A stretch of DNA of 64,000 bases from the NCBI GenBank assembly GCA_021513695.1, contig CP084166.1, forward strand, positions 1,248,001 to 1,312,000, read 5' to 3'. Below are positions 25,498 through 56,244 of this stretch, in pieces. This DNA comes from Candidatus Heimdallarchaeum aukensis (GTDB lineage: Archaea; Asgardarchaeota; Heimdallarchaeia; Heimdallarchaeales; Heimdallarchaeaceae). Made by a program: the position numbers and the translations under genes. How positions within the stretch are numbered: the stretch's first letter is position 1; every line of letters starts with the position of its first letter. The notes beneath the pieces were generated by a model, which saw only the letters and a program-made list of their open reading frames with translations, made no database searches and was not told the origin of the DNA.

Positions 25498-25565
25498 ATT
25501 TATTTCCCTTAACTTTTTTTATAGAATAAGATATATTCTACATATAAATAAGTTTCTTCTAAGAA

Positions 25566-26378: not shown

Positions 26379-27146
26379 TTAAGCTGAACCTTTTGCAACT
26401 TTTATTCTATGAATAATTATCTCTCTTGTTAGTTGTTCTATCGGTTGTGCTACTTTTTGAACATTAGGTGGTCTTTCTCCTTTTTTCAATCTTCCATATT
26501 CATCAAGTTTTTCTTTTACGTTTGGACTTCGAAGAAGTGACATTAGCTCATTTCTAGCATTTAAACAAGAGATTTCCATTACTCGCATATATGCTTCTCC
26601 TTTATTTTGAGCCAAACCTTTTTCTACCACTAAATCGAGAAAATCATCTGTAGGTCTTCTTTTTTCTGCAGGAAGATCTATTTTGTTTAGTACAATCAAG
26701 AAAGGTAAAGAATTTCCGAGTTCATCCCCTTTAAGTTCAATTAGCTCATCAAGGCTTTCAACATTATCTTGCCACATTTCTTTAGATGGATCAAACATAA
26801 AAATTAGTCCATCTGCTCCTTCAAGGACTACCTTTCTTTGTATATGATGTCTTTTCTGTCCTGCAACTGTCCAAACTTGATATCTTAATTTAGGGACGCT
26901 TACTCCTTGACCTTTAGGCAATTCAAAAGTACTCTGGTCATAAAATATTGTTCTTCCAGAAGGGTCATCAATTTTCTTTAGTGATGAATAGATTGTTTCT
27001 GGATCTTCTACTTTTCTTAACACATTATATACTGTTAACATACTAGTTTTTCCTGCTAAAGAAGGTCCAAAAATAACGATTTTAAGGTAAGGAACACCCG
27101 AAGCATCCACTTTGAAGATATCGCTAATTGATAATTTACTTGACAT
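26379..27146 (-). CDS. MglA-like Ras-superfamily small GTPase
   Basis: KIVIFGPSLAGKTSML, GRTIFYD (switch I Thr), RYQVWTVAGQKRH (switch II), NKIDLP; close to bacterial MglA (KIVYYGPGLCGKTT ... LYTVPGQ ... NKRDL). Confidence 0.75.
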   Translation of the reverse strand: MSSKLSISDIFKVDASGVPYLKIVIFGPSLAGKTSMLTVYNVLRKVEDPETIYSSLKKIDDPSGRTIFYDQSTFELPKGQGVSVPKLRYQVWTVAGQKRHHIQRKVVLEGADGLIFMFDPSKEMWQDNVESLDELIELKGDELGNSLPFLIVLNKIDLPAEKRRPTDDFLDLVVEKGLAQNKGEAYMRVMEISCLNARNELMSLLRSPNVKEKLDEYGRLKKGERPPNVQKVAQPIEQLTREIIIHRIKVAKGSA

Positions 27147-27620
27147 ACTAACCTTTCCGTTAACTGTTCTTTTCTTTTAATTCGTTATTAGAGTTATAAA
27201 AATTTTGTTGGTTAGTTTTCTATAAATTTTTCTTTCTTATTAAGTTATCGGCTGTTTTAGCCAAAATTAAAATGAAATTTAAAAATCCTCATAGCAAAAG
27301 GAATAGACATATATTTTTAATGAGATGAAATATTAAGTAACTAACAAAAGCCTATATTTTTTAAATGAATTTTAAATAATGATTATTCCAAAAAATTCTT
27401 ATTCTTTTCTCGTTATGAGAACAAGTAATACAGTCAAGAGCAATTTCTAGTGTGATAGACTTACGAAATGATGACCATGAAAAATTTATATACCAAAATG
27501 TAAATATGTACGAAATATAGATATAGTTCAAAACGAAAAAGATAAAACCCATTATGCTGTATCTAGATAGAATAAATAAAGAGCAATAAAATTGTTGATG
27601 AATATAGTTAAGGTGAATTA
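27147..27620. promoter_or_regulatory. AT-rich divergent intergenic region between a MglA-like gene (-) and a GTPase-roadblock operon (+); likely holds both promoters
   Basis: 474-bp non-coding gap with multiple TATA-like tracts; the 88-aa ORF inside has non-coding composition. Confidence 0.3.
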
Positions 27621-28640
27621 ATGTCATTTTACGAATTTAGACGTCGAATATTAGAAGAAAAGAAACGACAACAAAAACAACAAAGTAAAATTGGAGAAAA
27701 AATATCTGCGTCATTTTCACAACCTGAACTAGAGACAGGTAGAACAAAATACAGTGTTGCTTTATTAGGATTGGAAAGAGCAGGAAAAACTTCTTTAGTT
27801 AAGAAGTTATTAAAACAAGACGACATAGTTACACGACCAACCTATGGAGTAAACATTGAATCATATCATTATCGAGATTTAAATTTCACATGTTTTGATC
27901 TTGGAGGCCATGCGCCTTTTAGATTAAGTTTATGGAAAAAGTTTATTGAAAGAGCAGATGGAATTCTATATTTAGTTGATTCTGCAGATAACTCAAAATT
28001 TGAAGAGTCAAAACAAACCTTTTGGCATTATATTAATTTCGCGAAACCTAATAGTCCAGTATTATTCTTAGCAAATAAAAGTGATTTACCTAATTCAAAA
28101 GAATTAGCTGAAATAAATGAATACTTCGAGCTAGATAAATTTCTAAGAAACCTTAGACCTTTTAATGTTAAAAAAATCTCTGCTAAAACTGGACAAGGAG
28201 TTTATGAGGCTTGGGATTGGATGGTCGAGATTCTTTGTGGAGCTCAGCAATGGAAAGTTAAAATTGCTGCAGCAGTATTAACTGATGTTTCTGGAAACAT
28301 TCTTTCAGAAGCTATGTTTGGTAGACCAGATGAACAAGCCCATTTAGCTTCTGATTTTAGAAAACTCAAAGAATTAGCCAAACTGTTTGCTATTGAAGCA
28401 AAAGATAGTATTCAAAGTGTAAAACTTGAAAGCTTATTTAAAAAACACGTCAGCCACGTTAAGCGAGGAGCTTATGCATTATCTGTAATGATAGACCCAA
28501 TTGATCCAGTTACTCGGGCACAACAAATTCAACTTCGGATTTTGGAATATTTCAGCAGAAATGCAAATATAACTCAAGATTCATTAGAAGATGTATTCAT
28601 CAGCAAGTTTCCTCTCGAAGTTGAGAAAGGAATTAGATAA
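27621..28640 (+). CDS. Sar1/Arf-family GTPase fused to a C-terminal roadblock-like domain (first of a tandem pair)
   Basis: ALLGLERAGKTS, TYGVNIE, FDLGGHAPFR (Sar1-type His), LANKSDLP, SAKTGQGVYEAWDWM (Arf-like G5), then a roadblock-like tail KIAAAVLTDVSGNILSE ... AYALSVMIDP. Confidence 0.75.
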   Translation: MSFYEFRRRILEEKKRQQKQQSKIGEKISASFSQPELETGRTKYSVALLGLERAGKTSLVKKLLKQDDIVTRPTYGVNIESYHYRDLNFTCFDLGGHAPFRLSLWKKFIERADGILYLVDSADNSKFEESKQTFWHYINFAKPNSPVLFLANKSDLPNSKELAEINEYFELDKFLRNLRPFNVKKISAKTGQGVYEAWDWMVEILCGAQQWKVKIAAAVLTDVSGNILSEAMFGRPDEQAHLASDFRKLKELAKLFAIEAKDSIQSVKLESLFKKHVSHVKRGAYALSVMIDPIDPVTRAQQIQLRILEYFSRNANITQDSLEDVFISKFPLEVEKGIR

Positions 28641-28643
28641 AAA

Positions 28644-29645
28644 GTGAGAAAAATGAGTAGTTACCTATCATTCCTTAGAGATAAAGTTATCTCCCAAAAA
28701 GGAGAAAAAATACCGCATATAGCAATTTTAGGCCTAGATAAATCTGGAAAGTCTACAACAGTTAATAGATTACTTTTTGGAACTGTGTCGGACGCTAATC
28801 CTCCTCAATCTACTTGCTTCATCAACATTTATTATGGTAAATCTCTGATTAGTGTTTTAGAAGCAGATGAGGAGACAGCAAGAGAAAGCCCCTATTTCCA
28901 AGATATCCTTTCTCAAATTGATGGGGTAATTTTTATTATTGATACTGAAACAAAACGTCATGTAGAAGCTTCTTTTGAATATATTTACAGTTTATTAGAT
29001 AAAATCCCCCAACAAACACCAATGTTATTCTTAGCGAATAAAATGGATATTGAAAATGCTATTCCCTTCGAAGAAATATTATTAGATCCTGCATTTCAAG
29101 TAATAACAGATGACATTAACCGTTCTGTCTCGATCTATGATATTAGTGCAAAAACGGGAGAGAACTTCTACACAGCTTTTGATTGGATAATATCTCGAAT
29201 TACAGGAAGAACACCTTTGAGAGAAGAAGTAACTTTGAAAAGAGTAATTATTTTACAAGAAGGAGGTGTTCCAGCATTTGATCACACATTTGATACAAAG
29301 ATTGAAGAACATGATAGCACTTTACTCGGGGGGTTAATTAGTGCTTTAAACATCATGGCTACAACAATTTTTGAGAGTGAGTCTGTAATGGACATAGTTA
29401 AACTTGGCCATTTCAAGCTAGTTATCAGAAAAATGCAAGGGTGGACAGGGGTTTTATTCGTAAATAGAGATGACAGTGAATCAAAAGCTCAATCTCTCGC
29501 TGAAGAAATATTAAAAGCATTTATTGAAGAAAAAAATAGAAAACCAGATCAAGAACTAGCAAGAGAAACAAAATATGAATTATTGCATAAAATACCAGAA
29601 ATTGCAATATTATTAGATCAAGAATTAGATCAAGAAATTAATTAA
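28644..29645 (+). CDS. Divergent small GTPase-roadblock fusion with degenerate switch II (second of the tandem pair; possible pseudo-GTPase)
   Basis: G1 ILGLDKSGKST and G4 LANKMD are retained, but the DxxG(Q/H) position reads LEADEETARE. C-terminal roadblock-like VIILQEGGVPAF ... FKLVIRKMQGWTGVLFV. Separated from the previous gene by 3 nt. Confidence 0.7.
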   Translation: MRKMSSYLSFLRDKVISQKGEKIPHIAILGLDKSGKSTTVNRLLFGTVSDANPPQSTCFINIYYGKSLISVLEADEETARESPYFQDILSQIDGVIFIIDTETKRHVEASFEYIYSLLDKIPQQTPMLFLANKMDIENAIPFEEILLDPAFQVITDDINRSVSIYDISAKTGENFYTAFDWIISRITGRTPLREEVTLKRVIILQEGGVPAFDHTFDTKIEEHDSTLLGGLISALNIMATTIFESESVMDIVKLGHFKLVIRKMQGWTGVLFVNRDDSESKAQSLAEEILKAFIEEKNRKPDQELARETKYELLHKIPEIAILLDQELDQEIN

Positions 29646-41198: not shown

Positions 41199-41224
41199 CT
41201 CTTTTTTCTTTTTTTTAAAAAAAT

Positions 41225-41334
41225 TAGTACTTCCGAATTATCTCAAAAAGTATGAATTGAGAACACGCCAATGATAGTATGAACTCCTATAATTTTAACT
41301 TATAGAAATCAGTCAACTTATTGCGGAAGTACTA
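41225..41334. mobile_element. MITE-like element, copy 2 (110 bp, same 11-bp TIRs, flanked by AAAAAT direct repeats)
   Basis: 109/110 identical to 25566-25675 (single difference at element position 76: 41300 t vs 25641 c); sits 44 bp upstream of the MglA-like gene start. Confidence 0.75.
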
Positions 41335-41378
41335 AAAAATCTAATAATGTTTAAATATATCGAAACCAATTTTTTATT

Positions 41379-42137
41379 ATGAGTCAATCAGAGCTCCAGT
41401 TATCAGATATTTTTAGCGTAGATAAAGATGGAAAGCCCACAATCAAAATTGTTCTTTTTGGTCCCACCTTAGCTGGAAAAACCAGTATGCTTACCGTTTT
41501 TAATGCTTTAAGAAGAATGGAAGATCCAGATCTTATTGTAAGTTCTCTTACCAAAATCCAAGAATATGGTCGAACAGTTTTCTTTGATCACTCTGTTTTT
41601 CAAACACCACCTTTCAAAGGTAAGAAATTTGATCGTCTTCGTTATCATCTATGGACAGTTCCTGGGGAAGAGAGACATAAGGCCCAAAGAGATATTGTTA
41701 TGAGAGGTGTAGATGCTGTTTTACTATTTTTAAATTTTGAAAAAACTGCTTGGGATTCAAATGTTAAAACAGTGAAAGAAGCAAAAGCAAAAATAGGAGA
41801 AAAATTCGGGAAAAAGATTCCAGTTGTTGCGTATATTAATAAATCAGACCTTCCTCCTGAAGAGCGTACAGATAAGCGTGCGTTTATTACATTTTTACAA
41901 GATATTGAAGCTATTCCAAAAGAGAATGTTGCAAACTATATTATGACTGGTAGTTGTCTTAATGCTCGTAATGACTTATTAACCATCTTAAAATCAGAAA
42001 ATCGTGATGAATACCTTGAAAATGAAAGATTGAAAACTAGTAAGCGTCCTGATTCAGTTTGGTTAGTGGTACGACCTATTCAAAAGCTTACACAATTAGT
42101 CGTACAGCAAAGAATGGAAGTTCTACAAGGCATATAA
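41379..42137 (+). CDS. MglA-like Ras-superfamily small GTPase (paralog of 26379-27146)
   Basis: KIVLFGPTLAGKTSML, GRTVFFDH, RYHLWTVPGEERH, YINKSDLPPE; matches MglA motif by motif. Confidence 0.75.
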   Translation: MSQSELQLSDIFSVDKDGKPTIKIVLFGPTLAGKTSMLTVFNALRRMEDPDLIVSSLTKIQEYGRTVFFDHSVFQTPPFKGKKFDRLRYHLWTVPGEERHKAQRDIVMRGVDAVLLFLNFEKTAWDSNVKTVKEAKAKIGEKFGKKIPVVAYINKSDLPPEERTDKRAFITFLQDIEAIPKENVANYIMTGSCLNARNDLLTILKSENRDEYLENERLKTSKRPDSVWLVVRPIQKLTQLVVQQRMEVLQGI

Positions 42138-42254
42138 CCTTTTTTTATCTTTTTTTCACGATGTTTATATAGTATTTTCTAGATTATTGTTTAAAGTAAA
42201 TCAAGTGTCTAATTCGATACTTATAATGTAGTAAATATAAAAGGAGTAGATAAA

Positions 42255-43301
42255 ATGCCAATAGAACCAATGACTAAGGCAGTTGGAGTAGATCTCGGTA
42301 CATCAACAATAAAACTAGTGAGTGGGAATCATTCTTATCGGATTCCCTCAGTAATTGGATCACCAAATCCTGGATGGTCAGGAATGGTGCAAGACAAAAG
42401 TTGGTTAAACAACTTAATAATTGAGGATGCAAATGGAAATGACGTTTATATCGGAGAACTCGCTAGATTACAAAGTGAAATACGTAAGTCTTTAGCTAGC
42501 GAGGGTAAAATGAAGTCTATTGAAAATAGTATATTAGCCTTAAAAGCAATTTTAAGTTTAATTATGAAATCCAATTACGAGCAATTTGTTGTTGCAACTG
42601 GAGTTCCTATTGCTACTGGAGTTGAAGAAAGTAAAGAACTAATTAGAGGACTTAAGGGAACCCACGAAATTAAGGTAAAAAATGATGCTACCGGAGAAAC
42701 AAAGCAAATGAAAATACTCGTGGAACAAGCTTTAGTTATGCCTGAGCCTTATGGAACCTATTACAATATATTAAAAACATCTGGAGTTACTACAGCTGTC
42801 GATTCAGTCATTGTAGACATAGGACATGGTACTACGGACATTTTATGTATGTATAATGGGCGTATAATGAGAGCCGCTTCAGGCTCATTAGAGGAAGCAA
42901 CAGATAGCTTAACAAGTGCCCTTTCAAGAGCAATTCAAGAAAAAAGTGGAAAAATCATTCGACCTTTTGATCTTATGAAAACTATAGAACAAGGCAAGAG
43001 GACAATTCTTGCGGGAGGAAAAGTATTAGACATCGGAAGTGCAGTAGATCAATCTATTGAAACTATCTCAGAAGTAATTATTGACGAGACAAATCGATTA
43101 CTAAATAACCTTCCACCTGATGCATGGATAGAAAAAGTTATGGTTACTGGTGGAGGAGCCTACATTTTTGGTAAATACTTAAAACAAGCTTTCTTTGAAG
43201 CAGACATTGTAAAATCGCCAGATGAAGTAATTGTTCCTAAAGATGCAGTAATGTCTAATGCTATTGGTTTTGAAATGATTGCAAAAACAAAAATGAAGTA
43301 A
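42255..43301 (+). CDS. Actin-fold ATPase (MreB/ParM-like actin homolog)
   Basis: Phosphate-1 VGVDLGTSTIKLV, phosphate-2 VDIGHGTTDI, adenosine motif VTGGGAYIFG; AAGGAG Shine-Dalgarno-like motif upstream. Confidence 0.75.
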   Translation: MPIEPMTKAVGVDLGTSTIKLVSGNHSYRIPSVIGSPNPGWSGMVQDKSWLNNLIIEDANGNDVYIGELARLQSEIRKSLASEGKMKSIENSILALKAILSLIMKSNYEQFVVATGVPIATGVEESKELIRGLKGTHEIKVKNDATGETKQMKILVEQALVMPEPYGTYYNILKTSGVTTAVDSVIVDIGHGTTDILCMYNGRIMRAASGSLEEATDSLTSALSRAIQEKSGKIIRPFDLMKTIEQGKRTILAGGKVLDIGSAVDQSIETISEVIIDETNRLLNNLPPDAWIEKVMVTGGGAYIFGKYLKQAFFEADIVKSPDEVIVPKDAVMSNAIGFEMIAKTKMK

Positions 43302-43332
43302 AAAAATAATTAAATTAACAAAATTAACAGAA

Positions 43333-44085
43333 TTAGCTATTTTTTTTATTGTTTCTTTTTTCTTCAAGCTTTAGCGCGTATTCTGGACTAAAAATAAGAT
43401 AAATAACCATGTAGGTTGCTAAGAAGTAAGCGGGATATACCATTATTGAAAAAGGAAAGAAGATGAAGCATAGTATAATAACAGTTGTACTTATAATCCA
43501 AAACAAGTCAAATTTACTAGGAACACCTTTAAAAGATGGAAAAGGTGTTTTTGAGATCATAAAACCAGAAATGACTAATGTAGCGATAATAAATTCCCAA
43601 GCAGGTGTTTCATGAAACACAACAAGACAAGATAAGACTAAAGCAGCAAATGGACTAGGAAGACCAGTAAAGTATAAGGTATAAAGAGGGTCTCTTTTAA
43701 CAAATCTATATAATCTGTACCATACTGAAGATAAATAAACTAGTCCTGTTAATACACCTACAGCAATGTGGATTGATGAAACTTCATAAGCTAGAAATAT
43801 TGCTGGTAAAATACCAAAAGCTATAGCATCAACTATGGTATCAATATCAACTGCTAGTTTCTTACTCCCACCTATCCTTGCTAATTTTCCATCTGTAAAA
43901 TCTAGGACTCCACAAATAGCAAGTATTTTTGCAAACCAAAGGATATAGTTATTCACTTCCAAGAATATGAAAACTATAGCAAGAATTGCTAATGAGATAT
44001 TTCCTAAAGTCATCAAATTTGCAAGTATAATTGCTGTTTTCTTAATCCAACCTTTTTGAAGAAATTCAATATCACTCCAACTCAA
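43333..44085 (-). CDS. pssA: CDP-alcohol phosphatidyltransferase (archaetidylserine synthase-like)
   Basis: DFTDGKLARIGGSKKLAVDIDTIVDAIAF matches D-G-x2-A-R-x8-G-x3-D-x3-D. Confidence 0.75.
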   Translation of the reverse strand: MSWSDIEFLQKGWIKKTAIILANLMTLGNISLAILAIVFIFLEVNNYILWFAKILAICGVLDFTDGKLARIGGSKKLAVDIDTIVDAIAFGILPAIFLAYEVSSIHIAVGVLTGLVYLSSVWYRLYRFVKRDPLYTLYFTGLPSPFAALVLSCLVVFHETPAWEFIIATLVISGFMISKTPFPSFKGVPSKFDLFWIISTTVIILCFIFFPFSIMVYPAYFLATYMVIYLIFSPEYALKLEEKRNNKKNS

Positions 44086-44095
44086 TTAAATCCAC

Positions 44096-44749
44096 TCAGT
44101 TATCTTTTAATTGTGCTAGAACACTTAATCCCGCACGAACACTTGTTGAAACAGAAACAGTTGTTAAAAAGTTTTTTCCGCCCACAATTTTCAAATGTGT
44201 AATTGAGCCAAACCTTATAGTTCCAATTTTTTGTCCTTGGGTTATTACATCTCCAGGTTTAACATATGATATTGTTCTTCTTGCAAAAATCCCTGAAACT
44301 TGAACTACATAAGCAATAATATCTAATTCTTTGTTAACTATTTTTATTGTATTTCTTTGATTTCTTTTTGCATAATTAGGAAAATAAACAGGCCAATGAG
44401 ATCCTTTTTTAAATTCTACACTTTCAACAGTTCCACTTATTGGTGCTCTATTCATATGAACATCGAAGGGAGACATACGTATTGTAAAATAAAGTTCATT
44501 TTCCTTTTTACTTACTTCTGATAATATCCCATCTGCAGGAGCTAATATTTGCTCTTCATTTAAACTAATCTCTCTTTCTGGATCTCTAAATGTCCAAATC
44601 AAAAATAAACAAATGAAGATTATTATTGAGGGAAACAAAGTAATCCAATAGTATTTAGTAATAATCAAAATAATGGAAACTACTATTGATAATGAGCTTA
44701 AAATTAAGCATAAACCGACTATTTTTTCCGAACTTTTGGCAACTTTCAT
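44096..44749 (-). CDS. psd: Archaeal-type phosphatidylserine decarboxylase proenzyme
   Basis: LAPADG, SPFDVHMNRAPISG, and IRFGSIT (the FGS self-cleavage/pyruvoyl site); adjacent to pssA. Confidence 0.7.
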   Translation of the reverse strand: MKVAKSSEKIVGLCLILSSLSIVVSIILIITKYYWITLFPSIIIFICLFLIWTFRDPEREISLNEEQILAPADGILSEVSKKENELYFTIRMSPFDVHMNRAPISGTVESVEFKKGSHWPVYFPNYAKRNQRNTIKIVNKELDIIAYVVQVSGIFARRTISYVKPGDVITQGQKIGTIRFGSITHLKIVGGKNFLTTVSVSTSVRAGLSVLAQLKDN

Positions 44750-44869
44750 TTTAACCGATTAATAAATTTGATAAAGGAATTTATTTAATTCTTTGAGTTT
44801 AAGCATTTTTTCAGAAATAAAAACATTCTGTTATTATATTCTAAAAAAGAAAAAAGAAAAGAAATTAGT

Positions 44870-47800
44870 TTAAAACTGTCTTTTTCTTAAAATATAGACT
44901 AAAGACATTAAGGTTACAAGCCCAACAAATATTGATGTATAAGGTGTTTTTGTTGGCTCAGTCTCTGTTGGTTCAGTAGGAGCAGTCTTATACAGTATAT
45001 AGTCTGCATCTAGAACATTTCCAAAATCATCTACTGCATATACATGAATAATATTCTTCTCTTGTGTTAAATGATATGGATATATTCTAAATGAAGCAGA
45101 TTTTGCACCAACAGAAAGTTGAACCTCTTCACCATTTAATGTTACTGAAATGTTATTTGCTGAACTCAATTCATCTTTAACAGTAAAGTCGATATAAGCA
45201 CCAGTCATAGCAGAACCGTTTGTCCAACCTCCACTTCCTATCAGAATAGGAGGTGTGCTATCTAGAATAAATTGACCTATGTATTTATCATCAGTAGTTA
45301 ATATTGTAAAAGTATACTTTCCATCTTCTTCAAGTGTCATTGAATATGAATAAGTTCCAGTTCCAGTGCTAGTAAGAGTAACATCTGTTTTTGTTTCTGT
45401 ACCGTTTACATCAACATATGTCACAGAAGCACTTAATGATGTAGAAGCGGGTATGGCTGTAATATCAAAATCAACTTTGTTGTCTGCTCTTGTAGCATAA
45501 ACAACTACTTTATTGTCTGCAAGTAACCACTTAATAAGATTGTCTGCAAAAACAGCATTTGTAGTTCCGTCATTATAATTTTCGACAAAACCTTCTGTAT
45601 CTATAAAGAAGTTAGTTGTACAAACTACTACTCTTCCTCCGTTCTCATTCTCAAAAGCTGCTGCTGTTGCTTCTCCTTCAAATTCTAATAATTCAACAGC
45701 TTTTCCTGTTGTTGTTAAGGAGGTTCCATAATGATCAACTTTGGCTACATTTTCAGTTATTCTGTGAAGATTTTTTACATTTGCAGTAAGAGGTTCTTCA
45801 AAACTATAAAATCCTTCATCTACTTGAATGTCATAAGGCTCAATGAGTTTGTTTACCATTGTAACATTGTTTCCAATAACCAACCCATAATCTGGATCCT
45901 TTGATGCTCCAAGAAGATCAATAAACAATGATCCTCCATTCGCCACATAGTCTTGTATAGCTGTTATTTCATCTGCTGTTAATGCGCCATAAGTTTGAGC
46001 TTTAGTGGATGGAAAATTTGGATAGATGGTATTAAATGGATCAGCGAACCAAATTGCATCGTAATCAGCTAGCAATTCTGAAGTTATTTCTCCTTTAGTT
46101 ATTTCGTTTACTGCTATTCCCTTACTGTTTAGATCTTCAATAAAGTAAATATATTGGCCTAATAAATGGTCCATTCCCCAGTTTGTATGCATCTTTGCTA
46201 GTAAAATTCTCTTTTCTCCAGGTACAACTTTAACTTTTATTATTGTCTCTGCTGTAACTCCTTTAGCTGTTTCAAAAGTTATTTTTCCTTCATAATCTCC
46301 TACAGCAGCATCTAGAGGGACATCAAAGATAAGTTCATAGTTTTTGTCCCAAGGATCTGTTGCTGGGGTGGTATTTAATGTGGCAATTTGAGTAATTGTT
46401 CCTGATAAGACTGGTGTTTTATCTTCCCAAGGAGTAGAAGATACAGATTTAACATAAATAGAAGCATAGAAACCTTGGTTTATCTCTTGATAGAATGGCA
46501 CATCAAGTTCTGGAATAGCCCATAATAGAACTGGAAAACCGCTATCGTTTTTAGGAGCGGCTTTAATTAAGTCTAATGCTTTTCCTAAATCTGGAACTCC
46601 TGCACCAAATTTCAAATAATCTAATCCTTGATCATCAGCTGAAAGCATCATTGCAGTCTTAATCATACCTGCATCATAAGGAATGCTCAATCCTTTTAAG
46701 ACATCAATAAGTACAGCTGCTGCTCCAGTAATTGCAGGAGTAGACATTGAAGTTCCTTGCATAGAAACATAATCAGTAGAACTTGCGATACCACAGCTCA
46801 TAATACCCATACCAGGAGCTGCTAGATCAGGTTTTACATATCCATCAGCAGTAGGACCGACAGAACTGAAATAAGCTTGTCCTTGACCGGTTTGTTTAGT
46901 TGCAGCTACAGAAATACTTTGAGCTTCTGCCCCAGGAGACTCAACTGTATAATAGTTTGTTCCACTATTTCCAGCTGCGACTGCAACAAGAATATTATTT
47001 AGGTAAAGTTCTCTAATCATTGCTTCTTCAGCATCTTGTCCTTCAGTATCTGTTCCACCCCAACTGAGGTTTATTACATTCACAATAGTTCCATTCTCTT
47101 TTAATTCTAGAGCATACTCAAAAGCAGCAATAAAAGCCTCAGGAGGAGCAGGACTTCCTAAGCGTCCTACAAGGATTTTTGCTTCAGGAGCCATTCCTAT
47201 ATATTCAGCATTTCCTACTCCAGCTCCAGCCATAATTCCAGCTGTGTGAGTACCATGTCCATTTTCATCTTCAATACTAGGATCATTAATATCATAACCG
47301 TTTTCCTTGGTAATGAAAGACTTACTTTCTTCCATTATTCTTCCTTGGAAATCAACATGTTGAGTATTAATTCCTGAGTCAATATCATATGCGATAATAG
47401 AGCTTCCCTTATATCCTAAATCCCATAAGAAACTTACATTTAGAATATCAGCTGTCTGCTTAGTCAATTTAATTTTTTCAGCATTAGATACAAGATAGAC
47501 TGGATCTTCTGGTTGCTTAATTTGAGTATATTTAGTATCAGTTAAATCGAAAACATTCTTTACTCCGTCAATTGATTTCAAGTTATCTTTTTCACTTAAC
47601 ATGTCTTCAACAATTACCATTTTTAAATAAGGATAGACTCGTTTTACATCATGTTGAGAGACAAAATTCTCTAATGCTTCAGGATTAGAGAAGTGAATAA
47701 GATATTTTCGCATCGAATCGACAAATGGTTGTTGAATTTCAACTTCTCTGGGTTCAATTGAAACTTCAGAACTTACTTGTTCTGTATTCGCGTGAATTAT

Positions 47801-47911
47801 TGAACCAGATTGTAATAAAATAAGCAATATTGTTATTGTACTGAACACATACATAATCTTTCTGCGGTTCATAATACAAGCTTTTTTGAGATATTCATAA
47901 AGTTTACTCAA
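44870..47911 (-). CDS. Secreted subtilisin-like serine protease (S8) with C-terminal domains and TM anchor (1013 aa)
   Basis: Signal peptide; Asp YDIDSGI, His HGTHTAGIMAG, Ser GTSMSTPAITG; C-terminal TEPTETEPTKTPYTSIFVGLVTLMSLVYILRKRQF. Confidence 0.85.
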   Translation of the reverse strand: MSKLYEYLKKACIMNRRKIMYVFSTITILLILLQSGSIIHANTEQVSSEVSIEPREVEIQQPFVDSMRKYLIHFSNPEALENFVSQHDVKRVYPYLKMVIVEDMLSEKDNLKSIDGVKNVFDLTDTKYTQIKQPEDPVYLVSNAEKIKLTKQTADILNVSFLWDLGYKGSSIIAYDIDSGINTQHVDFQGRIMEESKSFITKENGYDINDPSIEDENGHGTHTAGIMAGAGVGNAEYIGMAPEAKILVGRLGSPAPPEAFIAAFEYALELKENGTIVNVINLSWGGTDTEGQDAEEAMIRELYLNNILVAVAAGNSGTNYYTVESPGAEAQSISVAATKQTGQGQAYFSSVGPTADGYVKPDLAAPGMGIMSCGIASSTDYVSMQGTSMSTPAITGAAAVLIDVLKGLSIPYDAGMIKTAMMLSADDQGLDYLKFGAGVPDLGKALDLIKAAPKNDSGFPVLLWAIPELDVPFYQEINQGFYASIYVKSVSSTPWEDKTPVLSGTITQIATLNTTPATDPWDKNYELIFDVPLDAAVGDYEGKITFETAKGVTAETIIKVKVVPGEKRILLAKMHTNWGMDHLLGQYIYFIEDLNSKGIAVNEITKGEITSELLADYDAIWFADPFNTIYPNFPSTKAQTYGALTADEITAIQDYVANGGSLFIDLLGASKDPDYGLVIGNNVTMVNKLIEPYDIQVDEGFYSFEEPLTANVKNLHRITENVAKVDHYGTSLTTTGKAVELLEFEGEATAAAFENENGGRVVVCTTNFFIDTEGFVENYNDGTTNAVFADNLIKWLLADNKVVVYATRADNKVDFDITAIPASTSLSASVTYVDVNGTETKTDVTLTSTGTGTYSYSMTLEEDGKYTFTILTTDDKYIGQFILDSTPPILIGSGGWTNGSAMTGAYIDFTVKDELSSANNISVTLNGEEVQLSVGAKSASFRIYPYHLTQEKNIIHVYAVDDFGNVLDADYILYKTAPTEPTETEPTKTPYTSIFVGLVTLMSLVYILRKRQF

Positions 47912-50285
47912 AAAAGTGCTTTTAATTATCTAAATAAATTATTAAGTAAATTATTATGCAAAAAGTCGTACCAAAATTTTAAAAAATACCACTCAAACCT
48001 AAATATTAGCAGTTAGTAACTATTGTATCTATTATTTGAGAGATTCAACTATTAAATTAACAATAAGAATTCAACAGAAGTGGAAAAATGAGTGAAAAAG
48101 TAGGTATCATTGCATATGGAATATATATTCCGCGAAATAGAATTACTGTCGATGAGATCGCCAGTATATGGGGAGAAGATGCTAACGAAATAAAATCTCA
48201 ACTGCAAATTTTTGAAAAATCTGTTCCTTTTCCAGATGAAGATGTAGCAACCATGGCTGTCGAAGCAGCGCGTAATGCAATGAAACAATGGGGAGGAGAA
48301 GCAGAAAAAATAGGTGCAATATATGTTGGAAGTGAATCTCATCCATACGCCGTTAAACCAACTGCAACGATTGTTGCAGCTGCAATAGGCGCAGAAGGAG
48401 AAACGACGGCAGCAGATTTGGAATTTGCATGTAAAGCAGGAACTGCAGGCATGCAAATGTGTTTTGGATTAATTCAGTCAAACATGATCAAGGTTGGTCT
48501 AGCTATAGGTTCTGATAGTAGTCAAGCTAAACCAAAAGACCCATTAGAGTACACTGCGGGTGCAGGAAGTGCCGCATTTTTAATTGGTAAGCAGGATATT
48601 ATCGCAGAGCTTGAGGGTACATATTCTTACACTTCTGATACTCCAGATTTCTGGAGAAGAGAAGGAGCAACTTTTCCCTCTCATGGTCAAAGGTTTACTG
48701 GTATGCCTGCTTATTTTGATCATATTATAAAAGCAACAAAAGGATTATTAGAAAAAATCGATAGAAAGCCTGAAGACTATGATTACGTAACATTTCACCA
48801 ACCTAACACAAAATTTCCTTTAAGAGTAGCTAAAATGTTAGGTTTTTCTAAAGAGCAAATCGAAAATAGTTTGGCGTGTAAGTACGTAGGAAACACATAT
48901 TCTGCTTCATCTATGATTGGATTTGCAAAAATTTTGGATGAAGCACAACCAGGCGATAAAGTTCTTGTAACTTCATATGGAAGTGGAGCAGGAAGTGATG
49001 CTTTTTCTTTTAAAATTACAGAAAACATCGAAAAAATAAGGAGTAGATCTAAAACTGTTCAATATTATATTGAAAATAAAAGAAATATCAGCTATGGTCT
49101 CTATTCCCGCTATAAAGGAATTTTAAAGGTGTAAGTATGAGTAATGAAGTATATATAATTGGTACTGGACAAACAAAATTTGGTGAATTTTTTAATTTAA
49201 ACATTGGTGATCTTGCTTCTGAAGCAGTTAACAAAGCTATTGAAAACGCGGGAATAGGAAAAGATGAGATAAGAACGCTATTTATTGGGTCAACAGTTTC
49301 TAACTCTCTTTCTCAATCATCAATAGGCGGAATTTGTACTAGAAGTTGTAGTTTATCTTCTAACGCTTACAGGATTGAATCTGGAAATGCTAGTGGTGCA
49401 GCTGCATTCCACCACGCTTTTTTAAGCATAAAAAGTGGGTTATATGACGTTGTTGCTGTATTAGGAATTGATAAATTATCAGATTATATCCAAAATGGAA
49501 CAATTGAAAAAATTTTAGCTTCATCCATTGATTACCAATGGGAATACGAAATGGGAGCTACCCTCACAGGATTATACTCTTTTCTGACTCAAGCTCATAT
49601 GGAAGAATATGGAACAACATTAGAACAGCTAGCTTATATTCCAACGAAAAACCATCAAAATGGAGTTCTAAACCCAAAAGCTCAATATAGGTATGCTATC
49701 CCACTAGAAAAATTTCTTAATGCAAAAAGAATTGCTGACCCTATTGGAAGGTTTGATGTGGCTACACCTTGTGACGGTGCAGCAGTAGTAATATTAGCTT
49801 CTGAAAGATATATTGAAAATAAAAAACCACATTCTTACAAGGTAAAAATTCTCTCCTCATCAGCTGGTTCAGACACTTTAGCTTTGCAACACAGAGAAAA
49901 ACTAACAGAGTTAAAAGCAACTAGACTGGCTGTTAACGATGCTTACAATAAAGCCAAAATTTCAGCAAATGATATTAATGTTGCAGAAGTACATGATTCA
50001 CACCCAATTGGAGAGATATTAGCAATAGAAGATCTTGGTTTGGTACCTAAAGGTGAAGGAGGAAAAGCAACTGTAGAAGGGTTGACTGCGCTAAACGGAA
50101 AGATAACTGTTAACCCAAGTGGAGGATTAAAAGCTAGGGGTGATCCTTTCGGAGCAACAGGAATTGCACAGTTAATAGAAATCGTTGAACAAATAAGAGG
50201 AAATGCTGGAAAAAGACAAGTCGAGGATGTAAAATATGGGTTAACACAAAATGTCATGGGAACAGGGGTTATGTCCTATGTTTCT
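46101..50285. repeat. Unit A of a perfect 4185-bp tandem direct duplication
   Basis: All ORFs in 46101-50285 recur with identical translations at +4185 (48088/52273, 49137/53322, protease N-terminus 47911/52096). The junction near 50285-50288 shares a tatt microhomology. Confidence 0.85.
48088..49134 (+). CDS. Archaeal hydroxymethylglutaryl-CoA synthase (copy A)
   Basis: MSEKVGIIAYGIYIPRNRI N-terminus, catalytic Cys context EFACKAG, 348 aa; precedes a thiolase gene (HMGCS/thiolase/DUF35 operon). Confidence 0.85.
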   Translation: MSEKVGIIAYGIYIPRNRITVDEIASIWGEDANEIKSQLQIFEKSVPFPDEDVATMAVEAARNAMKQWGGEAEKIGAIYVGSESHPYAVKPTATIVAAAIGAEGETTAADLEFACKAGTAGMQMCFGLIQSNMIKVGLAIGSDSSQAKPKDPLEYTAGAGSAAFLIGKQDIIAELEGTYSYTSDTPDFWRREGATFPSHGQRFTGMPAYFDHIIKATKGLLEKIDRKPEDYDYVTFHQPNTKFPLRVAKMLGFSKEQIENSLACKYVGNTYSASSMIGFAKILDEAQPGDKVLVTSYGSGAGSDAFSFKITENIEKIRSRSKTVQYYIENKRNISYGLYSRYKGILKV

Positions 50286-50333
50286 ATTTCGTTTACTGCT
50301 ATTCCCTTACTGTTTAGATCTTCAATAAAGTAA
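49137..50333 (+). CDS. Thiolase (acetyl-CoA acetyltransferase), copy A, with a junction-derived C-terminal tail
   Basis: Identical to copy B for 382 aa, then reads SFTAIPLLFRSSIK across the duplication junction instead of LGRGDN. Confidence 0.7.
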   Translation: MSNEVYIIGTGQTKFGEFFNLNIGDLASEAVNKAIENAGIGKDEIRTLFIGSTVSNSLSQSSIGGICTRSCSLSSNAYRIESGNASGAAAFHHAFLSIKSGLYDVVAVLGIDKLSDYIQNGTIEKILASSIDYQWEYEMGATLTGLYSFLTQAHMEEYGTTLEQLAYIPTKNHQNGVLNPKAQYRYAIPLEKFLNAKRIADPIGRFDVATPCDGAAVVILASERYIENKKPHSYKVKILSSSAGSDTLALQHREKLTELKATRLAVNDAYNKAKISANDINVAEVHDSHPIGEILAIEDLGLVPKGEGGKATVEGLTALNGKITVNPSGGLKARGDPFGATGIAQLIEIVEQIRGNAGKRQVEDVKYGLTQNVMGTGVMSYVSISFTAIPLLFRSSIK

Positions 50334-52096
50334 ATATATTGGCCTAATAAATGGTCCATTCCCCAGTTTGTATGCATCTTTGCTAGTAAAATTCTCTTTT
50401 CTCCAGGTACAACTTTAACTTTTATTATTGTCTCTGCTGTAACTCCTTTAGCTGTTTCAAAAGTTATTTTTCCTTCATAATCTCCTACAGCAGCATCTAG
50501 AGGGACATCAAAGATAAGTTCATAGTTTTTGTCCCAAGGATCTGTTGCTGGGGTGGTATTTAATGTGGCAATTTGAGTAATTGTTCCTGATAAGACTGGT
50601 GTTTTATCTTCCCAAGGAGTAGAAGATACAGATTTAACATAAATAGAAGCATAGAAACCTTGGTTTATCTCTTGATAGAATGGCACATCAAGTTCTGGAA
50701 TAGCCCATAATAGAACTGGAAAACCGCTATCGTTTTTAGGAGCGGCTTTAATTAAGTCTAATGCTTTTCCTAAATCTGGAACTCCTGCACCAAATTTCAA
50801 ATAATCTAATCCTTGATCATCAGCTGAAAGCATCATTGCAGTCTTAATCATACCTGCATCATAAGGAATGCTCAATCCTTTTAAGACATCAATAAGTACA
50901 GCTGCTGCTCCAGTAATTGCAGGAGTAGACATTGAAGTTCCTTGCATAGAAACATAATCAGTAGAACTTGCGATACCACAGCTCATAATACCCATACCAG
51001 GAGCTGCTAGATCAGGTTTTACATATCCATCAGCAGTAGGACCGACAGAACTGAAATAAGCTTGTCCTTGACCGGTTTGTTTAGTTGCAGCTACAGAAAT
51101 ACTTTGAGCTTCTGCCCCAGGAGACTCAACTGTATAATAGTTTGTTCCACTATTTCCAGCTGCGACTGCAACAAGAATATTATTTAGGTAAAGTTCTCTA
51201 ATCATTGCTTCTTCAGCATCTTGTCCTTCAGTATCTGTTCCACCCCAACTGAGGTTTATTACATTCACAATAGTTCCATTCTCTTTTAATTCTAGAGCAT
51301 ACTCAAAAGCAGCAATAAAAGCCTCAGGAGGAGCAGGACTTCCTAAGCGTCCTACAAGGATTTTTGCTTCAGGAGCCATTCCTATATATTCAGCATTTCC
51401 TACTCCAGCTCCAGCCATAATTCCAGCTGTGTGAGTACCATGTCCATTTTCATCTTCAATACTAGGATCATTAATATCATAACCGTTTTCCTTGGTAATG
51501 AAAGACTTACTTTCTTCCATTATTCTTCCTTGGAAATCAACATGTTGAGTATTAATTCCTGAGTCAATATCATATGCGATAATAGAGCTTCCCTTATATC
51601 CTAAATCCCATAAGAAACTTACATTTAGAATATCAGCTGTCTGCTTAGTCAATTTAATTTTTTCAGCATTAGATACAAGATAGACTGGATCTTCTGGTTG
51701 CTTAATTTGAGTATATTTAGTATCAGTTAAATCGAAAACATTCTTTACTCCGTCAATTGATTTCAAGTTATCTTTTTCACTTAACATGTCTTCAACAATT
51801 ACCATTTTTAAATAAGGATAGACTCGTTTTACATCATGTTGAGAGACAAAATTCTCTAATGCTTCAGGATTAGAGAAGTGAATAAGATATTTTCGCATCG
51901 AATCGACAAATGGTTGTTGAATTTCAACTTCTCTGGGTTCAATTGAAACTTCAGAACTTACTTGTTCTGTATTCGCGTGAATTATTGAACCAGATTGTAA
52001 TAAAATAAGCAATATTGTTATTGTACTGAACACATACATAATCTTTCTGCGGTTCATAATACAAGCTTTTTTGAGATATTCATAAAGTTTACTCAA
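50276..52096 (-). pseudogene. Truncated duplicate of the S8 protease (N-terminal 606 codons only, no C-terminal domains or anchor)
   Basis: Identical to the first 606 aa of 44870-47911, then diverges at the duplication junction and terminates. Confidence 0.6.
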
Positions 52097-54470
52097 AAAA
52101 GTGCTTTTAATTATCTAAATAAATTATTAAGTAAATTATTATGCAAAAAGTCGTACCAAAATTTTAAAAAATACCACTCAAACCTAAATATTAGCAGTTA
52201 GTAACTATTGTATCTATTATTTGAGAGATTCAACTATTAAATTAACAATAAGAATTCAACAGAAGTGGAAAAATGAGTGAAAAAGTAGGTATCATTGCAT
52301 ATGGAATATATATTCCGCGAAATAGAATTACTGTCGATGAGATCGCCAGTATATGGGGAGAAGATGCTAACGAAATAAAATCTCAACTGCAAATTTTTGA
52401 AAAATCTGTTCCTTTTCCAGATGAAGATGTAGCAACCATGGCTGTCGAAGCAGCGCGTAATGCAATGAAACAATGGGGAGGAGAAGCAGAAAAAATAGGT
52501 GCAATATATGTTGGAAGTGAATCTCATCCATACGCCGTTAAACCAACTGCAACGATTGTTGCAGCTGCAATAGGCGCAGAAGGAGAAACGACGGCAGCAG
52601 ATTTGGAATTTGCATGTAAAGCAGGAACTGCAGGCATGCAAATGTGTTTTGGATTAATTCAGTCAAACATGATCAAGGTTGGTCTAGCTATAGGTTCTGA
52701 TAGTAGTCAAGCTAAACCAAAAGACCCATTAGAGTACACTGCGGGTGCAGGAAGTGCCGCATTTTTAATTGGTAAGCAGGATATTATCGCAGAGCTTGAG
52801 GGTACATATTCTTACACTTCTGATACTCCAGATTTCTGGAGAAGAGAAGGAGCAACTTTTCCCTCTCATGGTCAAAGGTTTACTGGTATGCCTGCTTATT
52901 TTGATCATATTATAAAAGCAACAAAAGGATTATTAGAAAAAATCGATAGAAAGCCTGAAGACTATGATTACGTAACATTTCACCAACCTAACACAAAATT
53001 TCCTTTAAGAGTAGCTAAAATGTTAGGTTTTTCTAAAGAGCAAATCGAAAATAGTTTGGCGTGTAAGTACGTAGGAAACACATATTCTGCTTCATCTATG
53101 ATTGGATTTGCAAAAATTTTGGATGAAGCACAACCAGGCGATAAAGTTCTTGTAACTTCATATGGAAGTGGAGCAGGAAGTGATGCTTTTTCTTTTAAAA
53201 TTACAGAAAACATCGAAAAAATAAGGAGTAGATCTAAAACTGTTCAATATTATATTGAAAATAAAAGAAATATCAGCTATGGTCTCTATTCCCGCTATAA
53301 AGGAATTTTAAAGGTGTAAGTATGAGTAATGAAGTATATATAATTGGTACTGGACAAACAAAATTTGGTGAATTTTTTAATTTAAACATTGGTGATCTTG
53401 CTTCTGAAGCAGTTAACAAAGCTATTGAAAACGCGGGAATAGGAAAAGATGAGATAAGAACGCTATTTATTGGGTCAACAGTTTCTAACTCTCTTTCTCA
53501 ATCATCAATAGGCGGAATTTGTACTAGAAGTTGTAGTTTATCTTCTAACGCTTACAGGATTGAATCTGGAAATGCTAGTGGTGCAGCTGCATTCCACCAC
53601 GCTTTTTTAAGCATAAAAAGTGGGTTATATGACGTTGTTGCTGTATTAGGAATTGATAAATTATCAGATTATATCCAAAATGGAACAATTGAAAAAATTT
53701 TAGCTTCATCCATTGATTACCAATGGGAATACGAAATGGGAGCTACCCTCACAGGATTATACTCTTTTCTGACTCAAGCTCATATGGAAGAATATGGAAC
53801 AACATTAGAACAGCTAGCTTATATTCCAACGAAAAACCATCAAAATGGAGTTCTAAACCCAAAAGCTCAATATAGGTATGCTATCCCACTAGAAAAATTT
53901 CTTAATGCAAAAAGAATTGCTGACCCTATTGGAAGGTTTGATGTGGCTACACCTTGTGACGGTGCAGCAGTAGTAATATTAGCTTCTGAAAGATATATTG
54001 AAAATAAAAAACCACATTCTTACAAGGTAAAAATTCTCTCCTCATCAGCTGGTTCAGACACTTTAGCTTTGCAACACAGAGAAAAACTAACAGAGTTAAA
54101 AGCAACTAGACTGGCTGTTAACGATGCTTACAATAAAGCCAAAATTTCAGCAAATGATATTAATGTTGCAGAAGTACATGATTCACACCCAATTGGAGAG
54201 ATATTAGCAATAGAAGATCTTGGTTTGGTACCTAAAGGTGAAGGAGGAAAAGCAACTGTAGAAGGGTTGACTGCGCTAAACGGAAAGATAACTGTTAACC
54301 CAAGTGGAGGATTAAAAGCTAGGGGTGATCCTTTCGGAGCAACAGGAATTGCACAGTTAATAGAAATCGTTGAACAAATAAGAGGAAATGCTGGAAAAAG
54401 ACAAGTCGAGGATGTAAAATATGGGTTAACACAAAATGTCATGGGAACAGGGGTTATGTCCTATGTTTCT
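50286..54470. repeat. Unit B of the 4185-bp tandem direct duplication
   Basis: See unit A. Confidence 0.85.
52273..53319 (+). CDS. Archaeal hydroxymethylglutaryl-CoA synthase (copy B)
   Basis: Identical translation to copy A. Confidence 0.85.
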   Translation: MSEKVGIIAYGIYIPRNRITVDEIASIWGEDANEIKSQLQIFEKSVPFPDEDVATMAVEAARNAMKQWGGEAEKIGAIYVGSESHPYAVKPTATIVAAAIGAEGETTAADLEFACKAGTAGMQMCFGLIQSNMIKVGLAIGSDSSQAKPKDPLEYTAGAGSAAFLIGKQDIIAELEGTYSYTSDTPDFWRREGATFPSHGQRFTGMPAYFDHIIKATKGLLEKIDRKPEDYDYVTFHQPNTKFPLRVAKMLGFSKEQIENSLACKYVGNTYSASSMIGFAKILDEAQPGDKVLVTSYGSGAGSDAFSFKITENIEKIRSRSKTVQYYIENKRNISYGLYSRYKGILKV

Positions 54471-54494
54471 ATTCTAGGGAGAGGTGATAATTAA
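53322..54494 (+). CDS. Thiolase (acetyl-CoA acetyltransferase), intact copy B
   Basis: 390 aa, thiolase fold motifs (GSGAGS ... CDG), native C-terminus; stop overlaps the DUF35 start. Confidence 0.85.
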   Translation: MSNEVYIIGTGQTKFGEFFNLNIGDLASEAVNKAIENAGIGKDEIRTLFIGSTVSNSLSQSSIGGICTRSCSLSSNAYRIESGNASGAAAFHHAFLSIKSGLYDVVAVLGIDKLSDYIQNGTIEKILASSIDYQWEYEMGATLTGLYSFLTQAHMEEYGTTLEQLAYIPTKNHQNGVLNPKAQYRYAIPLEKFLNAKRIADPIGRFDVATPCDGAAVVILASERYIENKKPHSYKVKILSSSAGSDTLALQHREKLTELKATRLAVNDAYNKAKISANDINVAEVHDSHPIGEILAIEDLGLVPKGEGGKATVEGLTALNGKITVNPSGGLKARGDPFGATGIAQLIEIVEQIRGNAGKRQVEDVKYGLTQNVMGTGVMSYVSILGRGDN

Positions 54495-54883
54495 TGGAAC
54501 CGCCAAAAATTTGGAGAGAACGCAGAGAGCGATACCTAGGAATAGGAATTATTTGCGAAGATTGTCAAAAAAAGAATTTTCCAAAAACAAGAATATGTCC
54601 TGATTGTGGAAGTGAAAACGTAAAACCTTACAAAATAGCAGAGAGAGGTACATTAAAGTATTTTACTCAGATCATGAATACTGGAGATGAATTAATATTC
54701 AACACACCTTATATTGTTGGTCTAGTCGAGTTAGAGGATGGTATTAAGGTTACAGCGCAAATTGTAGATTGTGATTTTAAAGAGCTAAGAAAAGGAATGA
54801 AATTAGAAAAAACATTCAGAGTACTAGCAAGAAATGGAAAAGAAGGATTAATTAAATATGGATTTAAGTTTAGACCAATCTAA
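54494..54883 (+). CDS. DUF35 zinc-ribbon/OB-fold protein, scaffold partner of archaeal thiolase/HMGCS
   Basis: CEDCQKK ... CPDCGS rubredoxin-like ribbon plus OB-fold; canonical third gene of the archaeal thiolase/HMGCS complex operon. Confidence 0.8.
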   Translation: MEPPKIWRERRERYLGIGIICEDCQKKNFPKTRICPDCGSENVKPYKIAERGTLKYFTQIMNTGDELIFNTPYIVGLVELEDGIKVTAQIVDCDFKELRKGMKLEKTFRVLARNGKEGLIKYGFKFRPI

Positions 54884-54894
54884 ACTTCTTTTTT

Positions 54895-56244
54895 TTACAT
54901 ATCTATGTGTATAAAAGAATGAATCTTTAGGTTTTTTTCTTTTAGTTTCTCTATTGTTTTATTGTAATCATGTGTATAAGTGTGTATATCTCCTGTATGG
55001 AAACCGTGTATTCCCCCTTGTATTAAATCATGAACAACTACAAAGCCAATTCCACACCCTCCTTTTTCTTTAGGACAATAGAAAGCTGAAGAATTTTCAA
55101 AAGATAGTTCAATCGATATCTTAAGATTGTTAACAATAGAACTATGTATAGCATTTTCTACTTTCTCAAAACCACAAATTGGGCACTTTGGAGAAAAAAG
55201 TTGTGTTAATATTTCTATACATTTGTTATATATTGACTCAAAAAAGTATCCTGAAGACAAAAGTAGAAGGTTTTGCTCATCAAATTTCTTTATTTCAGGA
55301 AGCTTATGTACAGATAAGAGTTCTTCGAGTTTAGCAATTTCAAATAAGTGTTTAAAGCCTTCTACTGTAGTTTTAATTACACCAATTTCAGAGGAATTAT
55401 CCTTAATTGAAAAAGGTTTCATATATGAATCTTCTTCAACAGAAGAAATATTAAAAATAATAAAGTCTGTATTTTTGGGAAAAGAAGTTGTTTTTGGTCC
55501 ATAATGATAAATTAAGAAGTCCATCAATACTGGTTTTACCTCATTATCATGGGTATCAACTAGAAAAATAAACATCAAATTTCTATCACGAAATTGAATA
55601 ATTAATGGTGGAAGAGAAGATTTGTCCAGATGTAAAGTCTTCATTATCCCTAATCTACGTTTGGAAAGAATATTTTCAATGGACTTTACTGTTAAAAGTG
55701 TAGATTCAGGAACACTATAAGGAACAGGTTTAGAAACTGATACTCCTTGATCTATTAACGATTTTTCAAAATCTTCTCCCCAATTCTCCTTCATCCATTG
55801 CCATGGAATAAAAACGACATTCTTCCTCTTATACCATGCCTTTGAAGTCCTTGTTTCTCCATCGTAATAATAAAATAATGGGTGATTTTTTGAAGATTTT
55901 TCATTAATAATTATAGGTACAGCTACTAAATCTGCATATTTAGAACAATTTTCATGATCAATTCCTAAGCTTAAAGCACGAATGCAGCTTAGCAATTTCA
56001 ACGCAGGCTCTTGAAGCTTTAATTCTACTTCATCTTCAGTCCCTTGAAATGGGTCTTCTGCATCTCCACTTCTAGCCTTTATACAAAGAAGAAGATCTCC
56101 TTTTTGAGCACAGAGTACAACTCTTTTGTAACTTTGATAGTAGTCTACGTCCTTTGTATAAATTGTACAAATTTCAGTCCTAAATCCATTATCATTAAGA
56201 AAAGCTTCTATTAGTTTCATGAAATTTGTTTTAAATATCGACAT
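54895..56244 (-). CDS. Hypothetical protein (449 aa) with C-terminal CPICG ... C..C zinc motif
   Basis: Long ORF with coding composition, no confident family assignment. Confidence 0.4.
   Translation of the reverse strand: MSIFKTNFMKLIEAFLNDNGFRTEICTIYTKDVDYYQSYKRVVLCAQKGDLLLCIKARSGDAEDPFQGTEDEVELKLQEPALKLLSCIRALSLGIDHENCSKYADLVAVPIIINEKSSKNHPLFYYYDGETRTSKAWYKRKNVVFIPWQWMKENWGEDFEKSLIDQGVSVSKPVPYSVPESTLLTVKSIENILSKRRLGIMKTLHLDKSSLPPLIIQFRDRNLMFIFLVDTHDNEVKPVLMDFLIYHYGPKTTSFPKNTDFIIFNISSVEEDSYMKPFSIKDNSSEIGVIKTTVEGFKHLFEIAKLEELLSVHKLPEIKKFDEQNLLLLSSGYFFESIYNKCIEILTQLFSPKCPICGFEKVENAIHSSIVNNLKISIELSFENSSAFYCPKEKGGCGIGFVVVHDLIQGGIHGFHTGDIHTYTHDYNKTIEKLKEKNLKIHSFIHIDM

Follow-up and report, generated by a model that had tools for sequence, protein, structure and literature searches.

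The chromosome of Candidatus Heimdallarchaeum aukensis (CP084166.1) contains, within the 64-kb stretch analyzed here (the window, whose coordinates are used throughout), two adjacent and identical units of 4185 bp, each of which includes two genes of lipid-precursor synthesis and the first 60% of an S8 protease gene. The question raised by this locus is whether the repetition belongs to the organism or was created during the amplification or the assembly of its DNA. The results described below make it probable that the repeat is a genuine, very recent head-to-tail duplication, carried by the Ca. H. aukensis PM71 cells that grew in the ethane/sulfate enrichment.

Structure of the repeat, its junction and the ancestral state

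A base-by-base comparison at an offset of 4185 nt showed that every base from position 46100 to position 50288 is identical to its counterpart in the second unit, an unbroken run of 4189 nt with zero differences. The two units are adjacent and oriented head to tail, and one novel junction, with a short microhomology common to both breakpoints, connects them: the tetranucleotide TATT is found at 46100-46103, at 50285-50288 and, as a third copy located beyond unit B, at 54470-54473. When pairs of breakpoints are drawn at random from this sequence, 2.7% of them share a microhomology of at least 4 nt. The sole other long repeat in the 64 kb is an element of 118 nt. A preliminary description of the locus, made from the sequence alone, had reported two identical units of about 4185 bp and a 4-nt tatt microhomology at their junction; the offset comparison and the position of TATT at the unit starts and at the third site are in agreement with both observations, the unit edges given there being displaced by an immaterial 1 nt on the left and 3 nt on the right.

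Both boundaries are located inside coding sequences, so that the junction generates a chimeric thiolase gene and a truncated protease gene (Table 1): the left breakpoint falls after codon 604 of the protease gene, and the TATT of the right breakpoint is placed 18 nt ahead of the thiolase stop codon. The duplication boundaries are free of inverted repeats, of tRNA genes, of an att site and of transposase, integrase or recombinase genes, no tRNA genes were found in the window, and the domains encoded by the unit are metabolic and protease domains only; an origin by a mobile element or by site-specific recombination was ruled out on these grounds. Breakpoints in unrelated coding sequences, the lack of mobile features and a microhomology of 4 nt are, taken together, the signature of illegitimate microhomology-mediated joining. 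Such joining would have taken place between the TATT inside the protease gene and the TATT near the thiolase stop codon, either by template switching during replication or by unequal joining of sister chromosomes, and no mobile element would have been involved.

The ancestral state was analyzed by comparison with three relatives among the species-representative genomes. The corresponding region of Ca. H. endolithica PR6 (CP084167.1, 1400394-1417563) is colinear over its whole length, shows 87% nucleotide identity and contains one copy of the unit. The gene order is the same as in H. aukensis, namely an actin-like gene followed by the genes for a CDP-alcohol transferase, a phosphatidylserine decarboxylase, the S8 protease (1013 codons), HMG-CoA synthase (HMGCS), thiolase (390 aa) and a DUF35 protein (129 aa). 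The locus differs from that of H. aukensis in that everything is single, there is no junction and no element resembling a miniature inverted-repeat transposable element (MITE) is located upstream. The more distant Heimdall metagenome-assembled genomes YT1_029 and SRP141376_co2_229 each have a single HMGCS-thiolase-DUF35 operon. One unit is likewise found in a contig of run SRR15988958, from the H. aukensis strain itself (see below). Because the relatives are single-copy, the single copy is, on this comparison, the ancestral state, and the duplication is derived and specific to this strain.

Evidence for the junction in independent contigs

The H. aukensis genome originates from one DNA sample, FW4588, of an ethane/sulfate sediment incubation. 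This sample was sequenced as one Illumina PE150 library, prepared from unamplified DNA, and two Nanopore runs, the DNA for both of these, and for these only, being submitted to multiple displacement amplification (MDA); metaSPAdes contigs were scaffolded with LRScaf and polished with Pilon (PMC8813620). As a proxy for read mapping, the k=31 de Bruijn (Logan) contigs of the three runs that carry this strain were compared with the window. The Logan assemblies are independent of LRScaf and of the published assembly.

The contigs of run SRR15988954 were 100% identical to the window across approximately 33 kb. Around the repeat they spanned 41305-46129 (4825 nt), 46100-50288 (4189 nt) and 54444 to past the window end. 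When the k=31 graph of the duplicated sequence was simulated, it yielded unitigs at 41305-46129 and 46100-50288, a junction unitig of 56 nt (50259-50314) and a unitig from 54444 onward, and the observed contigs matched this simulation exactly. In the graph of a simulated single-copy genome, the unitig that starts at 41305 continued without a break as far as the window end. The flanking contigs of SRR15988954 extend 30 nt into the unit, and the contig of the unit itself contains no flank. This pattern requires a second predecessor for the unit's first k-mer and a second successor for its last; reads therefore join the end of the unit to its start.

A mixture of a deletion allele with the single-copy sequence was also simulated as a possible cause of the breaks, and was rejected: the expected contig ends were 46103, 46074, 50314 and 50285, versus the observed 46129, 46100, 50288 and 54444. 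The remaining breaks of SRR15988954 in the region fall at two copies of the 118-nt repeat, this run being interrupted at true repeats only. Run SRR15988959 gave short contigs, whose other ends are unrelated to repeats; one of them starts at exactly 54444.

The contig ends, although an indirect indication, thus place the junction in the raw reads of SRR15988954 and SRR15988959 independently of the published assembly and, together with the simulation, they largely settle that the scaffolder did not invent the join. In the preliminary description, the zero divergence between the units had been attributed either to a very recent event or to a mis-join of repeats; the first of these is retained, and the second is disfavored by the contig ends of the two runs.

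Exact look-ups of the chimeric thiolase and of the truncated protease among assembled contigs returned no record. This was expected, as graph assemblies break at the junction, and for that reason the absence of these products is not counter-evidence. Two pattern searches were uninformative: a 42-nt junction pattern had no match in the GTDB species representatives, a collection apparently without this region, from which a protein scan likewise did not retrieve the source genome, and a 30-nt junction pattern had none in the JGI metagenomes, in which a control pattern from the native thiolase-DUF35 boundary was unmatched as well, the strain being absent from them.

Several points weigh against a genuine tandem duplication. 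The contig of run SRR15988958 (L001), with 12,105 nt, corresponds to the window minus one unit and crosses both boundaries, and the junction is absent or under-represented in that run. The support for the junction comes from contig ends rather than from read depth or counts of spanning reads, and the de Bruijn evidence is the same for a tandem duplication as for a 4185-bp circle, and for two copies as for more. The published assembly was scaffolded with MDA-amplified Nanopore reads, and MDA is known to produce chimeras. Finally, the platform of each run had to be deduced: from the error profiles and Table S6 of PMC8813620 we infer that SRR15988954 is the Illumina library and that SRR15988958 and SRR15988959 are the two Nanopore runs.

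The differences between the SRR15988958 contig and the window consist of four homopolymer-length changes only, at 54567, 54889, 57486 and 58369 (A6/A7, T7/T8, A10/A9 and T5/T6, respectively), and one homopolymer indel is also present in SRR15988959. Two of the four changes shift the reading frame of N-termini conserved in H. endolithica; the DUF35 zinc ribbon is affected in its first CxxC. True strain variation is an unlikely source of these differences, since all four concern homopolymer length and two disrupt conserved N-termini. They are probably technical errors of a homopolymer-prone platform, which suggests that SRR15988958 consists of long-read data.

The single-copy path through the SRR15988958 contig could be due to a single-copy chromosome accompanied by a circular DNA of 4185 bp, formed by loop-out of a transient duplication or by excision at the TATT sites, and linearised by the assembler. 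The graph of such a mixture is identical to that of the tandem duplication, and the Nanopore reads are short (an N50 below 2 kb is implied), so that perhaps none of them spans the whole unit. A circle of this kind would not be expected to persist at appreciable copy number, the unit being devoid of replication or integration functions and containing only metabolic genes and half a protease, and its origin by loop-out presupposes the duplication; we consider it quite unlikely.

The finding of the junction in two runs and not in the third, its 4-nt microhomology and the use of MDA on this low-yield sample would also be explained by an in-vitro chimera, produced through a template switch in the course of MDA or of library PCR, abundant in some of the libraries and resolved by the assembler as a duplication. 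MDA chimeras reportedly tend to join nearby segments at short microhomologies, and the sites joined here are only a few kb apart. Unlike most MDA chimeras, which are inverted, this junction is direct. Single chimeras are rare one-off products, whose coverage in a community sample should fall well short of that of the genome, and links of low coverage are cleaned from the graphs. Moreover, the junction shapes the graphs of two runs, and one of these, SRR15988954, is the cleanest of the runs, matches the Pilon-polished sequence at every homopolymer and is presumably the non-MDA Illumina library. An in-vitro origin is also regarded as quite improbable.

The assembly could show the minimal two copies of an array which, in some cells, contains at least three. 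Copy number leaves no trace in the de Bruijn graph, and tandem duplications, once formed, amplify readily by homologous recombination. No sign of more than two copies was detected, and, judging from the SRR15988958 graph, the junction is under-represented rather than in excess; amplification to a higher order is very doubtful.

A pure assembly or scaffolding artefact, in which metaSPAdes, LRScaf or Pilon wrote the unit twice and the junction exists in no molecule or read, would account for the zero divergence, for the single-copy contig of SRR15988958 (the only run with an uninterrupted path) and for an assembly in which short-read contigs were scaffolded with short amplified reads, but it is hardly credible, since the contigs of SRR15988954 and SRR15988959 break where only a junction of unit end and unit start in the reads would break them, and the published sequence is identical to the SRR15988954 contigs everywhere else.

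A genuine duplication remains the preferred explanation. Two perfect repeats of 4.2 kb would be recombinationally unstable, and homologous recombination would collapse them readily. As a speculation, the duplication may be polymorphic, present on a fraction of the chromosomes only, which would reconcile the single-copy contig of SRR15988958 with the other two runs.

Genes within and around the duplication

The coordinates of the duplication and of its genes are given in Table 1. An exact-sequence look-up identified the seven products, in order, as UJG41905.1-UJG41911.1, encoded on the 3,081,793-bp contig of H. aukensis. The chimeric thiolase and the truncated protease are annotated by NCBI as ordinary genes, the duplication being part of the deposited closed genome. 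It is not mentioned in the genome paper (PMC8813620) or in other papers naming the organism.

Table 1. Positions of the repeat units, their junction and the associated genes in the window
Feature	Coordinates	Strand	Description
Duplication unit A	46100-50284		4185 bp; exactly identical to unit B; corresponds to the SRR15988954 Logan contig L002 minus its final 4-nt overlap
Duplication unit B	50285-54469		4185 bp; exactly identical to unit A
A/B junction	50281-50288		Thiolase 3' end (...GTTTC) fused to the protease interior via TATT (50285-50288)
S8 (subtilase) protease, full-length	44870-47911	-	1013 codons; Pfam PF00082, E=1.5e-45; from translation
Protease/HMGCS intergenic region	47912-48087		176 bp; divergent, AT-rich; inside the unit; second copy at 52097-52272
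HMG-CoA synthase, copy A	48088-49134	+	348 aa; UJG41906.1
Thiolase, copy A (chimeric)	49137-50333	+	398 aa; UJG41907.1; not followed by a DUF35 gene
S8 protease, truncated copy	50276-52096	-	606 codons (604 native residues and 'ET', then stop); UJG41908.1 (593 aa in the NCBI call)
HMG-CoA synthase, copy B	52273-53319	+	UJG41909.1; identical to copy A
Thiolase, copy B (native)	53322-54494	+	390 aa; UJG41910.1; ends ...MSYVSILGRGDN
DUF35 / Zn-ribbon OB-fold protein	54494-54883	+	UJG41911.1; single copy, beyond the duplicated unit

The full-length protease is predicted to consist of a signal peptide, a catalytic domain (residues 177-432), a Thr/Pro-rich linker and a C-terminal transmembrane anchor; the start chosen by NCBI, at 47872, gives a product of 1000 aa (UJG41905.1). 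In the truncated copy, the signal peptide and the entire S8 domain are retained, but 409 residues are missing at the C-terminus, among them the Thr/Pro-rich linker and the terminal hydrophobic helix preceding RKRQF, which is read as the membrane anchor. The restriction of the extra copy to the N-terminal 606 codons, noticed in the preliminary description, was confirmed by the open reading frame (ORF) map, Pfam and translation.

On the other side of the intergenic region, adjacent genes for an archaeal-type HMGCS, a thiolase and a Zn-ribbon OB-fold DUF35 protein are present, as in the archaeal mevalonate-entry complex. HMGCS scored above the NCBIfam equivalog cut-offs (NF003274, 540 bits, cut-off 244; TIGR00748, 497 bits, cut-off 353) and, judged by these scores, is a clear archaeal equivalog. 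The thiolase matched PDB 6ESQ chain A with E=1.8e-66 and scored 407 bits against NF004720, just below the cut-off of 420. The DUF35 protein matched Pfam PF01796 and PF12172 and PDB 6ESQ chain E (E=1e-26), and its N-terminus matches that of H. endolithica. The stop codon of the native thiolase gene overlaps the DUF35 start codon.

In the chimeric thiolase, residues 1-384 are native, to ...MSYVSI, and the final 6 residues (LGRGDN) are swapped for 14 hydrophobic residues derived from the junction, SFTAIPLLFRSSIK. The fold would be retained as far as ...MSYVSI, and the residues that follow differ among relatives as well (LGRGEN, FGKDEVKK, LGKEEIR). The chimeric gene and the truncated protease gene are convergent and overlap by 58 nt. 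Each copy of the intergenic region would carry its own presumed promoters; as this region is inside the duplicated unit, each copy is expected to be transcribed bidirectionally.

The second HMGCS gene, the junction-derived tail of the first thiolase and the retention of the native thiolase end and of the DUF35 gene by copy B only had all been recognized in the preliminary description, and are in agreement with the ORF map, the translations and Pfam. That description had further proposed a doubled dosage of the first two enzymes of the pathway. The gene copies are indeed doubled, but for the enzymes 'doubled' is too strong: a doubled dosage is possible and not assured, because DUF35, the scaffold of the thiolase/HMGCS complex, is single-copy and the extra thiolase is without the native last 6 residues and is no longer translationally coupled to DUF35. 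With the resulting gene ratio of 2:2:1, DUF35 may limit complex formation.

An 864-nt contig from another source (ENA ERZ27247985, contig k141_13105) is 99.07% identical (8 mismatches) to window positions 54102-54965, across the native thiolase-DUF35 boundary; at this identity, a second strain of the same species exists elsewhere.

Genes for a CDP-alcohol phosphatidyltransferase and a phosphatidylserine decarboxylase, of lipid head-group synthesis (43333-44749), adjoin the protease gene and the mevalonate-entry operon, in H. endolithica likewise. The surroundings of the locus (26379-29645, 41379-42137, 42255-43301 and from approximately 63696 to the end of the window) contain 'eukaryotic signature' genes of the kind typical of Asgard archaea, namely several for small GTPases of the Arf/Roc/Ras-like type and one actin-like (ALP_N / MreB-like_C) gene.

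The MITE-like element is approximately 106 nt long, is bounded by 11-bp terminal inverted repeats (TAGTACTTCCG...CGGAAGTACTA) and occurs in the window at 25561-25678 and 41220-41337. The two copies are 97% identical, and each is flanked by a 6-bp direct repeat (TAAGAA and AAAAAT, respectively). On folding, the element forms a terminal stem of 12 bp, with z about -5 for either strand, and the Logan contigs of SRR15988954 break at it. H. endolithica has an empty site at the position corresponding to 41225 (L009, about 231-239). A scan of the window against Rfam, including this element, gave no matches. Within the minus-strand ORF 14822-15547, positions 15204-15339 form a tandem repeat whose period is 12 nt (TCAGCTTTTGGT, approximately 6 copies, 96% matches).

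Significance and comparison with known systems

By the duplication, the cell would gain a second HMGCS, a second thiolase with a foreign tail of 14 residues and a secreted protease without membrane anchor, and DUF35 would stay single. It is unlikely that the duplication arose and rose in the 9-month ethane/sulfate enrichment as an adaptive change. The gain would then be a higher flux through mevalonate to isoprenoid lipids, or a soluble, anchor-less S8 protease aiding peptide scavenging; if this were true, structural genome evolution under selection would have been directly observed in an Asgard archaeon, and the three runs would represent different allele frequencies.

The finding reveals no new mechanism and no new kind of system. 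Its main value is as a remark on the annotation and quality of a closed genome, of which few exist for Asgard archaea, and as a caution for users of the reference proteome: the GenBank/UniProt entries UJG41907.1 (tail-swapped thiolase) and UJG41908.1 (truncated S8 protease) would be by-products of a very recent duplication, and comparative work on lipid biosynthesis in Asgard archaea should not treat the 'second' HMGCS and thiolase as paralogues. The join is supported by reads, and the population in the enrichment may not be uniform at this locus.

The acetoacetyl-CoA thiolase/HMGCS/DUF35 complex of Methanothermococcus thermolithotrophicus (6ESQ, 6ET9) has its putative counterpart in the products of the native HMGCS-thiolase-DUF35 operon of H. 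aukensis. H. aukensis differs in having two HMGCS genes, two thiolase genes, one of them foreign-tailed, and one DUF35 gene, with the copy A genes uncoupled from DUF35.

RecA-independent, microhomology-mediated tandem duplications (gene duplication-amplification) have been described in Salmonella and Escherichia coli, and form a class which is well documented in bacteria. From what is generally known of them, the H. aukensis duplication shares with these events the identical head-to-tail copies, the one novel junction with a microhomology of a few bases, the breakpoints in unrelated genes and the lack of a mobile element at the boundaries, as well as the expected instability, polymorphism in the population and change of dosage. 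It differs from them in its setting, an uncultured Asgard archaeon known from an enrichment metagenome. This is a new instance of a well-known type of event, previously undescribed for this genome: an ordinary, very young segmental duplication.

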